A stretch of 64,000 nt of DNA from Flavobacteriaceae bacterium (GTDB taxonomy: Bacteria; Bacteroidota; Bacteroidia; Flavobacteriales; Flavobacteriaceae): NCBI GenBank assembly GCA_018608705.1, contig JABAZD010000046.1:60603-124602 (forward strand), read 5' to 3'. The notes under the pieces were generated by a model, which did not search any database, had not been told where the DNA came from, and saw only the letters and a program-made list of their open reading frames with translations. How positions within the stretch are numbered: the first letter of the stretch is position 1; each line of letters opens with the position of its first letter. The position numbers were made by a program, and so were the translations under genes. Shown here one piece after another: positions 12,017-52,165 of this stretch.

Positions 12017-12048
12017 AACAAAAAAGGCATTCTAATTAGAATGCCTTT
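12017..12048 (-). terminator. Intrinsic terminator after exbB/exbD operon
   Basis: Perfect palindrome AAAGGCATTCTAATTAGAATGCCTTT (12023-12048) followed by a T tract on the minus strand. Confidence 0.8.
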
Positions 12049-49330: not shown

Positions 49331-49356
49331 AAAAAGAGGGGACTTTATGTCCCCTC
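49331..49356 (-). promoter_or_regulatory. Terminator-type attenuator in rimP leader
   Basis: GAGGGGAC-ATAAA-GTCCCCTC followed by TTTTT, lying between the promoter and the ATG. Confidence 0.7.
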
Positions 49357-49414: not shown

Positions 49415-49432
49415 GTGTTTATACTTGTTTAG

Positions 49433-49505
49433 TTGGCCCACTAGGGCTCGAACCTAGACTCTTTGGTACCAAAAACCAACGTGTTGCCAGTTACACCATG
49501 GGCCA
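49433..49505 (-). tRNA. tRNA-Gln(TTG)
   Basis: Acceptor TGGCCCA/TGGGCCA, anticodon arm TTGGT-TTTTGGT-ACCAA, T arm CTAGG-TTCGAGC-CCTAG; CCA not encoded. Confidence 0.95.
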
Positions 49506-49522: not shown

Positions 49523-49553
49523 CAAATTTATGATAAAGTTTTGTTTAGCCAAA
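49523..49553 (-). promoter_or_regulatory. tRNA-Gln promoter TTTG-N19-TAAATTTG
   Basis: Both consensus elements present with canonical spacing. Confidence 0.75.
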
Positions 49554-49581: not shown

Positions 49582-49613
49582 TTTGGTTTATAATATAAAC
49601 TAGTTTATATTTG
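49582..49613 (+). promoter_or_regulatory. Promoter TTTG-N20-TATATTTG overlapped by 20-bp palindromic putative operator (49592-49611)
   Basis: AATATAAACTAGTTTATATT is its own reverse complement and covers the start of the -7 element. Confidence 0.75.
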
Positions 49614-49634
49614 ATATTTTAAACCAATAAAAAT

Positions 49635-50189
49635 ATGGAAGATCAAATTCAACTAATTAATGATGTAATCAACAAAACAAAAGAAAACTTAAAAGAAAGT
49701 TCTTTCTCTTTTATTTTTTGGGGATCACTTATCGCTATACTAAGCTTTTTTCACTACAGATATCCGGAAGTTGTACAGCAAACACACTACTCATTACTAC
49801 TATATTGGGTCTTAATTCCTATTATAGGGATGGTTATAACTTTGGTCTATAACATTAAAAAACGCGTAAAAGCAGGCTATGAAACACATGTCGGGCGGAG
49901 TTTAAAAATAATATGGGGCGTGTTTAATATCTCTTGGATTCTTTTAATTTTTATCTCTATTGAAAAAAAAATTAATCCAACAGAGTCTATATTGTTTTTA
50001 TTAGGAGTGATGATTCTTATAACGGGACTTTTAATTCGCTTCAAACCCTTTTCTTTTGGAGGCATATCTGTTATTATATGCAGCATCCTTTGCGTTTACA
50101 CTCCAAATAATTCTTGGCTGTTGCTAAACAGTATTGCCGCTGTTTTAGGGCTACTTCTTCCTGGAATTTATCTTTATTACAGGAAATAA
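49635..50189 (+). CDS. Hypothetical polytopic membrane protein (about 6 TM)
   Basis: Short N-terminal helix then repeated hydrophobic segments; 1 nt from the wHTH gene. Confidence 0.75.
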   Translation: MEDQIQLINDVINKTKENLKESSFSFIFWGSLIAILSFFHYRYPEVVQQTHYSLLLYWVLIPIIGMVITLVYNIKKRVKAGYETHVGRSLKIIWGVFNISWILLIFISIEKKINPTESILFLLGVMILITGLLIRFKPFSFGGISVIICSILCVYTPNNSWLLLNSIAAVLGLLLPGIYLYYRK

Positions 50190-50190
50190 A

Positions 50191-50493
50191 ATGTTTAAGC
50201 CACTAAATAAAATACTGGTAAATCCAATACGACTGATGATTGTATCCGTCCTGATGAAAGTAGAAAATTGTGATTTTAATTTTCTGAAACAACTTACCAA
50301 AACTACCCAAGGAAATCTAAGTATACAACTAAAGAAGCTCAAAGAGTGTGGGTATATTTCTATTGATAAAAGTTTTGAGAAGAACTATCCAAAAACCAAT
50401 TGTAAAATTACAAAAGCCGGAGTTAAATCGTTTAAAGAACATTTTGAAAACCTTAAAGAATACCAGAACCTCAATCTAAAACATAAATCATGA
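50191..50493 (+). CDS. Winged-helix transcriptional regulator (ArsR/MarR-like)
   Basis: PIRLMIVSVL, DFNFLK, TQGNLSIQLKKLKECGYI, KITKAG. Confidence 0.85.
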   Translation: MFKPLNKILVNPIRLMIVSVLMKVENCDFNFLKQLTKTTQGNLSIQLKKLKECGYISIDKSFEKNYPKTNCKITKAGVKSFKEHFENLKEYQNLNLKHKS

Positions 50494-50915
50494 TAAAATT
50501 AATAATATTATTAATGTCAACACTTAGTTCTATTTTTCTTTTAGAACAAGAACCAAACACCGCTCATGTGTTGAAGATTACTGTAAATAATATTAAGAAT
50601 ATAAAAGGCAAATTACAGGTGTGCTTAACAGATAAAAAAGAGGATTTTTTAAAACAGTGCGACTACGCAAAAACAGTCGCCGTAACAAACAACACTATTT
50701 CATTAAAAATAGCAAACATAAAAACAGGGGTTTACTCAGTTTCGCTGTTCCATGACGAGAATAACAACGGTGTTTTAGACACTAAAGGTTTATTTGGAAT
50801 ACCCAGCGAGCCTTATGGATTCTCTAACAATCCAAGAACAACGTTTGGCCCTCCTAGTTTCGAAAATTGTACATTCCTTATTGACGGAGATAAACAAATC
50901 TACATTAAATTATAA
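50490..50915 (+). CDS. DUF2141 exported protein
   Basis: Signal peptide; GVYSVSLFHDENNNGVLD, GIPSEPYGFSNNP, GPPSF. Confidence 0.88.
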   Translation: MIKLIILLMSTLSSIFLLEQEPNTAHVLKITVNNIKNIKGKLQVCLTDKKEDFLKQCDYAKTVAVTNNTISLKIANIKTGVYSVSLFHDENNNGVLDTKGLFGIPSEPYGFSNNPRTTFGPPSFENCTFLIDGDKQIYIKL

Positions 50916-50951
50916 TAAAAAAAATATAACATAAACTGAACAAAAACTAAT

Positions 50952-51374
50952 ATGACACCAACAGAAGCTTTCACAATAGCTAATGCGGTCGCATTACCAA
51001 TGTGGGTCTTGATGCTCTTTTTATCAAAATGGAAAGTAACTCGGTTTTTGATTGATTTTAAAGTAATTCCATTAACATTAGCGTTCATATACGCTATTTA
51101 TATAGTTCAAGCCGTTTGTGTAAGTGGAATGATGGACTTTGGAAACCTTAGATCGGTTATGGCGTTATTTTCAGAAGAAAATGCAGTGCTGGCAGGGTGG
51201 ATTCATTACCTAGCTTTTGATCTTTTAGTTGGCATGTGGATGCTAGATCAAAATAAAAAATTAAAGATTAATCATTTAGTAATAGCTCCTTGTCTTTTTT
51301 TAACCTTCACGCTTGGGCCAGTCGGTTTCCTGCTTTTCATGATTATTAAAACCATTAAACAAAAACAATCTTGA
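50952..51374 (+). CDS. ABA4-like (DUF4281) membrane protein
   Basis: LPMWVLMLF, GWIHYLAFDLLVG, PCLFLTFTLGPVG. Confidence 0.85.
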   Translation: MTPTEAFTIANAVALPMWVLMLFLSKWKVTRFLIDFKVIPLTLAFIYAIYIVQAVCVSGMMDFGNLRSVMALFSEENAVLAGWIHYLAFDLLVGMWMLDQNKKLKINHLVIAPCLFLTFTLGPVGFLLFMIIKTIKQKQS

Positions 51375-52165
51375 TGTCTTTAAAGCATGTCTTTAACACA
51401 GTAAAAAACCATAGCCCACTATTGTATTGGATTGTAATAGTTCATTTGGTTTTAGCTATTGTGTCTATAACAAGTAGTTTTATGGATGATAGAACCCTTA
51501 TGGGAGTTAACGTTTGGATGAAGCCATTGAAATTCTCAATTTCTGTAGCTATCTATATTTTAACAGTAGGGTTTCTTATGACGTTATATCCTTTCTCTAA
51601 AAAAAAGAAGAATCTTATTAATAATATTGTTTGTTGGACATTGCTAATAGAATTAGGACTTATTATATATCAAGCATCAGGTGGGGTACAATCACATTAT
51701 AATATATCAAATCCATTTGATGGTTTAATCTTTACAGCTATGGGAATATTAATAGCTATTAATGTTATAATTATGGCATTATTTATATTTGAAACTATCC
51801 GATTGAAATTAAAAACACCTAAATTACTTCAATGGGCTATACTTCTAGGTTGGGTAATAGTATTTTTTGGCAGTTGGGTTGGCGGACAAATGATAAGTGA
51901 AATGTCTCATAATATTGGTGTCGAGGATGGAGGTCCTGGTCTTCCGTTAGTTAATTGGAGTACAATTGCTGGTGATTTAAGAGTAGCACATTTTTTTGGT
52001 CTACATGGCCTACAAATAATTCCAATTTTCGCATTATTAATTTCAAATAAATCGAAGACTAGCGCAAGGAATCAGATTATAATTGTCACTGTTTTTGGAA
52101 TAGCATATGCATTGTGTATTGGGTATACATTCTATCAAGCTAAACAAGGGGTGCCATTTATATAA
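51371..52165 (+). CDS. Conserved hypothetical polytopic membrane protein
   Basis: About 7 TM; VWMKPLKFSIS, QASGGVQSHYN, GDLRVAHFFGLHGLQ; overlaps the ABA4-like stop. Confidence 0.75.
   Translation: MMSLKHVFNTVKNHSPLLYWIVIVHLVLAIVSITSSFMDDRTLMGVNVWMKPLKFSISVAIYILTVGFLMTLYPFSKKKKNLINNIVCWTLLIELGLIIYQASGGVQSHYNISNPFDGLIFTAMGILIAINVIIMALFIFETIRLKLKTPKLLQWAILLGWVIVFFGSWVGGQMISEMSHNIGVEDGGPGLPLVNWSTIAGDLRVAHFFGLHGLQIIPIFALLISNKSKTSARNQIIIVTVFGIAYALCIGYTFYQAKQGVPFI

Follow-up and report, generated by a model that had tools for sequence, protein, structure and literature searches.

Results

Organization of the locus

The window, meaning the whole stretch of 64,000 nt that was analysed, belongs to a 1.99 Mb draft genome (33.6% GC); among named genomes, uncultured marine Formosa and Flavobacteriaceae MAGs are the nearest to it. 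Five tightly packed genes on the + strand lie downstream of a short promoter block and encode a 184-aa membrane protein, a winged-helix (wHTH) protein, a DUF2141 protein, an ABA4-like protein and a 264-aa membrane protein. The first two genes, referred to below as the gene pair, are translationally coupled. The original prediction had proposed that a perfect 20-bp palindrome overlapping the -7 element of this operon is the operator of the operon's own wHTH regulator; all of its coordinates and sequences proved correct when the window was re-read. The features of the locus are listed in Table 1.

Table 1 Features of the promoter region and of the downstream operon (positions are those of the window).
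Feature	Position	Strand	Basis or remark
tRNA-Gln(UUG)	49432..49505	-	divergent from the operon
-33 element TTTG	49582..49585	+	conservation of at least 80% across the 26 aligned promoters; CTTG in some lineages
Half-site 1, GTTTAT	49586..49591	+	conserved as strongly as the palindrome core; absent from the original prediction
Spacer AAT	49592..49594	+	length fixed at 3, sequence variable (AAT, AAA, TTT, AAC, ATT, TAT, AGA, others)
Perfect 20-bp palindrome AATATAAACTAGTTTATATT	49592..49611	.	operator-type constraint on the inner 14 bp only
Half-site 2, ATAAAC (consensus RTAAAC)	49595..49600	+	TAAAC nearly invariant
Half-site 3, GTTTAT (consensus GTTTAY)	49603..49608	+	conserved; overlaps the TA of the -7 box
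-7 box TATATTTG (TAnnTTTG)	49606..49613	+	sequence and promoter scan
Predicted transcription start	49618 (~ ±2 nt)	+	deduced from where the -7 box lies
TAAACCAA, right arm of the flanking pair	49620..49627	+	not conserved; varies even inside the genus
184-aa six-helix membrane protein, first gene of the pair	49635..50189	+	structure model; no Pfam or NCBIfam family
100-aa winged-helix regulator (Pfam HTH_34), proposed operator-binding protein	50191..50493	+	PF13601, 94.2 bits
DUF2141, ABA4-like and 264-aa membrane genes, lineage-specific operon tail	50490..52165	+	packed, no intergenic -7 box

The TTTG element and the TATATTTG box are separated by a 20-nt spacer, in agreement with the Bacteroidota sigma-A promoter (-33 TTTG, -7 TAnnTTTG, spacer within ~ 19–21 nt). 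The promoter consensus and box position used here were taken from PMC9723704, in which the TAnnTTTG box of Flavobacterium psychrophilum is located at -12 to -5. Placing the start near 49618 puts the three half-sites described below at -32 to -10, which, relative to this predicted start, is a repressing position. Between 49400 and 52400, the sole full TTTG-N17-23-TAnnTTTG promoter on the + strand is the one that carries the palindrome.

The divergent tRNA-Gln gene has its own minus-strand promoter, separate from the candidate operator, with a -7 box TAAATTTG at 49523–49530, a -33 TTTG at 49550–49553 and an N19 spacer. This promoter is of the textbook Bacteroidota type with a predicted leader of ~ 13 nt, and its -33 box is only 28 nt away from that of the operon promoter. 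On the minus strand, an 8-bp GC-rich hairpin with a T-run behind it (49336–49356), 76 nt 3' of the tRNA-Gln end and just upstream of rimP, could be the tRNA-Gln terminator. Other families retain the candidate operator without having the tRNA gene next to it.

The palindrome and its chance expectation

AATATAAACTAGTTTATATT is a perfect and spacerless 20-bp palindrome that cannot be extended, as a T/T pair is found at 49591 and 49612. The window's genome contains 18 perfect palindromes of at least 20 bp, compared with a chance expectation of 3–7 per genome as determined by five Markov-1 simulations; about one in four of them could therefore be due to chance, and ~ 0.15 are expected by chance per 64-kb window. 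Taken without comparative data, the palindrome is weak evidence and only weakly significant.

A reading of the palindrome as an RNA hairpin or terminator was rejected on the basis of its AT-rich sequence and its position upstream of the predicted start, with tRNA-Gln transcribed away from it, and a sigma70/terminator scan gave no match at the palindrome. Other palindromes were noted in the vicinity. An 18-bp perfect palindrome, ATTAATAATATTATTAAT, is located at 50498–50515, immediately behind the wHTH stop codon and where the DUF2141 gene has just begun; it is probably a side effect of AT-rich codons for a signal peptide. Longer perfect palindromes on the same contig, of 26 bp (window 12023–12048, C8:72625–72650) and 44 bp (C8:50531–50574, outside the window), may be bidirectional terminators or other elements.

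A 32-nt block with three half-sites

Alignment of 26 orthologous promoters from 13 genera limited the conserved unit to exactly 32 nt (49582–49613) with the consensus TTTG-GTTTAT-nnn-RTAAAC-TA-GTTTAY-ATTTG; the flanks of the block carry no information. The constrained bases comprise a 14-bp core, ATAAAC-TA-GTTTAT (49595–49608), and a third half-site, GTTTAT (49586–91). Judged from this pattern of constraint, the functional element is a set of three half-sites, GTTTAT-N3-ATAAAC-N2-GTTTAT (49586–49608), and not the 20-bp palindrome as drawn. The proposal that the palindrome acts as an operator is thus supported for its inner 14 bp but not for its outer AAT/ATT arms, which do not behave as operator bases: the left arm (49592–94) varies freely among orthologous promoters, and the right arm is conserved because it is part of the -7 box.

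Half-sites 1 and 2 form the dyad GTTTA-N5-TAAAC with centres 10 bp apart, while half-sites 2 and 3 form the palindrome core, TAAAC-N2-GTTTA, with centres 7 bp apart. This geometry, in which the middle half-site is common to both dyads, is unusual. Across 138 orthologous loci, the first dyad was perfect in 107 and had at most one mismatch in ~ 120, and the second was perfect in 77 and had at most one mismatch in 120, CTTTA being the usual variant of half-site 3.

A second inverted pair, formed by TTGGTTTA (49583–90) and TAAACCAA (49620–27), had been described as flanking the palindrome. The two sequences are indeed inverted copies of each other, but the right arm is not conserved outside the window's genome, and this part of the proposal was abandoned. 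The alignment columns of the right arm hold at most 0.75 bit each, in contrast to at least 1.5 bits in the core, and the other promoters show only a weak A-rich/TAAA tendency there.

Conservation within the genus and across the phylum

The gene pair was found in 13 of 19 congeners, with membrane proteins 56–91% identical to that of the window. One site was present directly upstream of the pair in all 13. Five of the six congeners devoid of the pair had no site, and the sixth displayed two partial intragenic matches from which the upstream half-site is missing. Since the whole tRNA-to-operon spacer is similar within the genus, more distant relatives were needed.

An order-level sample of 401 genomes yielded a strong wHTH match (E ~ 1e-18 or lower) in 38. 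The sampled order is apparently Flavobacteriales, as genomes of 300 and 600 kb, the size typical of insect symbionts, are among them. The sequence TAAACTAGTTTANNTTTG was found with at most one mismatch in 25 of these 38 loci, 570–2050 nt upstream and on the same strand, and a recognisable variant of the site was identified by inspection in 35. In total, the block precedes the pair in 10 Flavobacteriales families as well as in other orders and classes. Genome G029, from another family, encodes proteins only 24% and 45% identical to those of the window and has unrelated neighbouring genes, and its block TTTGGTTTATAATATAAACTAGTTTATATTTG is identical to window 49582–49613 at 32 of 32 nt.

In the phylum sample, the gene pair was again present in other orders and classes, with sites of 0–3 mismatches in families f21, f24 and f27 and a degenerate form in f47. 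An independent search of named genomes with a peptide pattern returned 406 relatives, of which the best 80 loci were examined; 75 had enough upstream sequence. The site (at most 2 of 18 mismatches) was observed on the sense strand in 61 of these 75 loci compared to 1 of 75 for the antisense control, and the set examined includes Chitinophagales, Sphingobacteriales and Saprospiraceae. Eleven loci of family f19 contain the gene pair and show no site within 1.5 kb. Flavobacterium johnsoniae appears to be without the wHTH orthologue.

The palindrome core was thus retained upstream of orthologous operons in the genus, order, phylum and named-genome sets, as the original prediction had anticipated for a genuine operator. 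The site is dyad-symmetric, overlaps the promoter of its own operon and is conserved where the flanks diverge. A functionless AT-rich palindrome arising by chance, of the kind that the simulations allow a few times per genome, has a negligible likelihood; conservation across the phylum at one fixed position before one gene pair already refutes it.

Variants of the half-sites

In f40, a family from a different class of the phylum (loci L071, L079 and L084), the half-sites read GTTAAT-N3-ATTAAC-TA-GTTAAT, all three being changed in concert, which argues that one protein reads all three. They are located just after an apparent sigma70-like promoter, TTGACA-N17-TAATTT, and not between -33 and -7 boxes. 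In the corresponding wHTH proteins, the recognition helix is AAAGNISIQ in place of (A/S)TxGNLSVQ. Several genomes of family f16 (L050, L047, L051, L030, L017, L041 and L043) displayed four half-sites in the form of two tandem 14-bp RTAAAC-NN-GTTTAY dyads 17 bp apart, and in some of these promoters the proximal dyad contains one inserted nucleotide. The four-half-site layout may be ancestral, with the three-site form as a reduced version.

The residue preceding G-N in the recognition helix was compared with the operator centre. Lysine was associated with CTAG in 12 of 12 loci and serine or alanine with CTAC or CTTG in 11 of 11, L085 being the exception. This covariation was discarded as support, as it represents only two independent changes on the tree and the sign test has no power.

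These variants also bear on the possibility that the block is an unusually constrained core promoter, of an extended sigma-A or alternative-sigma type, to which no regulator binds. The -33 and -7 boxes do lie inside the block, and the tRNA promoters of G253, another Flavobacteriaceae genome, carry AAAACTAGTTTATATTTG; ordinary strong promoters can thus include a portion of the motif. Among the 103 TAnnTTTG boxes in the window, however, the half-sites are found at this one only. Dyad symmetry and fixed spacers of 3 nt and 2 nt are not promoter features, the half-sites of f40 persist without a -7 box, and some f16 genomes have four half-sites in two tandem dyads. An explanation by promoter constraint was accordingly considered very unlikely.

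The G253 promoters referred to above belong to two tRNA genes (L057, G253:C1), are 232 nt apart and consist of half-site 3 and the -7 box, with the other half-sites missing.

Specificity of the site

The genome-wide scan for further sites put forward in the original prediction returned a single site. A position weight matrix scan of the window's genome gave one site at 50.3 bits, equal to the consensus, and nothing else above 14 bits; a scan of the same genome with the 20-mer allowing up to 3 mismatches gave one other place, which was unconvincing (C51:10175). With no second site, there is no wider regulon in this genome, and a single-target regulator points to a locally encoded one.

Of the 23 matches to the strict pattern GTTTRTNNNNTAAACNNNTTTANNTTTG in the 401-genome sample, 22 fell at the operon and the remaining one at another promoter of G029; the reversed control pattern had no match in the same genomes. 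The second G029 site, TTTGGTTTATATTATAAACTAGTTTATATTTG (L054, G029:C6:97363–97390, minus strand), is a full promoter-operator sequence upstream of a gene for a 283-aa protein that, by eye, has the look of an N-terminal signal peptide and of a C-terminal T9SS sorting domain. This gene is the sole candidate regulon member outside the operon in the 401 genomes.

Physical linkage alone would explain the co-occurrence of site and operon, so the site could in principle be bound by another trans-acting factor, encoded elsewhere, with the adjacent wHTH protein acting on different targets. This was judged improbable. The single site in the window's genome, the extra site in the wHTH-bearing genome G029 and the concerted f40 switch, in which the half-sites changed together with the recognition helix, all argue against it, short of proof. 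The strict pattern was in addition absent from every genome in the 401-genome sample that lacks a wHTH orthologue, and comparison of the neighbourhoods revealed no other conserved regulator gene near the pair.

The gene pair and its variable partners

The membrane-protein gene is directly upstream of the wHTH gene in nearly all of the 62 loci from the genome searches; the same holds for at least 72 of the 80 named loci. In the order sample, the two genes overlap or nearly overlap in almost all of the 38 loci; the membrane gene was missed by tblastn in four, of which L018 and L019 have the open reading frame and L036 looks broken. The DUF2141, ABA4-like and 264-aa membrane genes, which probably ride on the same transcript in the window, follow the wHTH gene in the three closest relatives only, with DUF2141 alone also present in L166. 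As the tail is limited in this way, the conserved regulated unit is the two-gene pair.

The DUF2141 gene of L166 (L166:1367–1768), a distant Flavobacteriales MAG, is 30% identical to that of the window and is located directly after the wHTH gene; this arrangement may have arisen independently of that in the window. In several families, the operator is separated from the membrane-protein gene by one or two additional genes. These encode a 2TM domain protein (PF13239; L019 and L046), a TMEM175-like protein (L026 and L027) or a secreted protein of ~ 175 aa (L021, L023, L026, L027 and L033). The cargo of the operon therefore differs between families, whereas the operator and the two final genes are constant.

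The two proteins

The wHTH protein matched Pfam HTH_34 (PF13601) at 94.2 bits (cut-off 27), with residues 13–91 covering positions 1–79 of the 80-position profile. Its AlphaFold2 model (pLDDT 93.6) has the layout α1-β1-α2-α3-wing (β-hairpin)-α4. The best fold match was PH1061 (PDB 1UB9; TM 0.78, rmsd 1.6 Å), which was also the sole PDB sequence match (E 8.5e-5, 28% identical), followed by small PadR, MarR and HxlR proteins, several of them solved as DNA complexes. The recognition helix G41-N42-L43-S44-x-Q46 is invariant in 51 sequences, matching the invariance of the half-sites.

The original prediction had drawn on dimeric ArsR/MarR-type repressors. The protein is an HTH_34 member with PH1061 as its closest structure; it is not a bona fide MarR protein and probably not a bona fide ArsR protein. 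Pfam HTH_5 matched at 29.1 bits (cut-off 22) over residues 11–57 only, NCBIfam HTH_metalloreg gave 30.6 bits, below its cut-off of 55, and MarR_2 gave 17.6 bits, below its cut-off of 27, so that the likeness to MarR exists at the fold level only. The PadR Pfam profile did not match, and the metal-site motif (α3 CxC, α5 His/Asp/Glu) was absent from the invariant columns of the 51-sequence alignment. An anti-phage defence reading was rejected, PADLOC having returned only a generic wHTH similarity to Csa3. The only near-invariant cysteine, C71 (window ~ 50401–50403; at least 90% of the 51 orthologues), is located in the first wing strand within T-x-C-x-I-T. One family has L or V instead, and position 71 could respond to redox state or to a ligand.

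The membrane protein was modelled by AlphaFold2 with six helices (pLDDT 85). A PDB fold search with this model gave no match (best E 0.7), and no Pfam or NCBIfam family was assigned to the protein; Pfam was also empty for its ~ 47–48 orthologues.

Discussion

The 32-nt block at 49582–49613 is best read as a combined sigma-A promoter and operator through which the adjacent wHTH protein represses its own operon, with the membrane protein as sensor or partner. A probability of roughly 0.7 is assigned to this reading. The central claim of the original prediction, that a dyad operator overlapping the promoter is used by the operon's own wHTH protein for autoregulation, is supported by comparative genomics in that the site travels with the wHTH gene, is single in the window's genome, has an extra copy only in a genome where the regulator is present, and switched in concert in f40.

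The proposed mechanism would proceed as follows. The three 6-bp half-sites fill the spacer between the -33 element and TATATTTG and overlap the latter, and the HTH_34 protein would bind them, most probably as a dimer or as two dimers. The bound protein would block RNA polymerase and thereby repress its own operon, that is, the membrane-protein and wHTH genes and, in the window's lineage, the genes for DUF2141, the ABA4-like protein and the further membrane protein. The co-translated membrane protein is likely the signal input or the partner that would relieve repression. The nearest folds of the wHTH protein (PH1061, small PadR and MarR-DNA complexes) are dyad-binding dimers, which was counted in favour of autorepression.

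The same operator could be used for activation, or for both repression and activation. Some MarR- and PadR-like proteins activate transcription, and certain lineages have a weak or modified -33 element (CTTG, TTAG). The position of the half-sites argues otherwise: in the window they take up all of the -33/-7 spacer together with the TA of the -7 box, which would occlude RNA polymerase, and in f40 they apparently follow directly after the sigma70-like -10 box, which is likewise an occluding position. An activating role is thus unlikely, and repression is retained as the preferred mode of action.

A broader proposal, which is tentative and has the odds against it, is that the membrane protein and the wHTH protein together constitute a one-step transmembrane signalling module that is widespread in Bacteroidota and previously undescribed. 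The six-helix protein, with a new fold, would sense an envelope or external cue and control the repressor directly, for example by SdpI-like sequestration at the membrane, and the three-half-site operator would be the single output of the module. The literature was searched for the motif, for the module and for HTH_34/PF13601 in such a context, and no description was found.

To our knowledge, the DNA site is known for very few regulators in Bacteroidota, marine Flavobacteriia included. The present analysis assigns a precise operator consensus, TTTG-GTTTAT-N3-RTAAAC-TA-GTTTAY-ATTTG, and a probable regulator to a two-gene module found in many families, whose proteins have no described function and whose membrane partner falls into no known family or fold. 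Being short, almost invariant and usually present once per genome, the site offers a clean experimental system for repression on the unusual -33/-7 promoters of Bacteroidota and for the signal sensed by the membrane protein. It could possibly also serve as a tight regulated-expression tool for Bacteroidota genetics.

Comparison with known systems

A wHTH autorepressor acting on a dyad operator is an ordinary mechanism; the gene pair itself is unstudied and widespread. The closest protein by both sequence and fold is PH1061 of Pyrococcus horikoshii (1UB9), which has the same length and the same alpha-beta-alpha-alpha-wing-alpha layout. It is an archaeal protein deposited as a hypothetical protein or regulator homologue, and at 28% identity it is a distant relative; no account of its operator or function was found in the literature searched.

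The small PadR protein Rv3488 (PDB 5ZI8) and the MarR-, MftR- and HpaR-DNA complexes share the winged-helix fold and the C-terminal helix (TM 0.63–0.74). Small PadR and MarR autorepressors dimerize via this helix and bind dyad operators overlapping their own promoters. The operator described here differs from a single dyad in its three half-sites, whose centres are spaced by 10 and 7 bp. The ArsR/SmtB proteins are also small dimeric autorepressors, and the wHTH protein shares with them an N-terminal HTH matching Pfam HTH_5; unlike them, it has no invariant metal-site residues and scores below the cut-off for HTH_metalloreg.

Sensor-then-repressor gene order is known from BlaR1/MecR1 with BlaI/MecI, in which the wHTH repressor acts on dyads overlapping the promoter of its own operon. 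The gene pair resembles these systems in its gene order and in the placement of the proposed wHTH operator over its own promoter. It differs in that the membrane protein, in contrast to BlaR1/MecR1, contains no protease, penicillin-binding domain or any Pfam match.

In Bacillus subtilis, SdpR is an ArsR-type autorepressor that is sequestered by SdpI, a polytopic membrane protein (PMC2910880). Both systems combine a small wHTH protein with a multi-pass membrane protein of ~ 190–200 aa in one operon, repression by the wHTH protein being inferred here. In the gene pair, however, the membrane gene comes first and its product has no match to the SdpI Pfam family or to a PDB fold, the wHTH protein is of the HTH_34 and not of the SdpR-like type, and no toxin partner is known. 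By analogy only, SdpR/SdpI would be the closest functional precedent; sequestration in the present system is speculation, and the likeness suggests a plausible route by which a signal at the membrane could lead to derepression of the operon.
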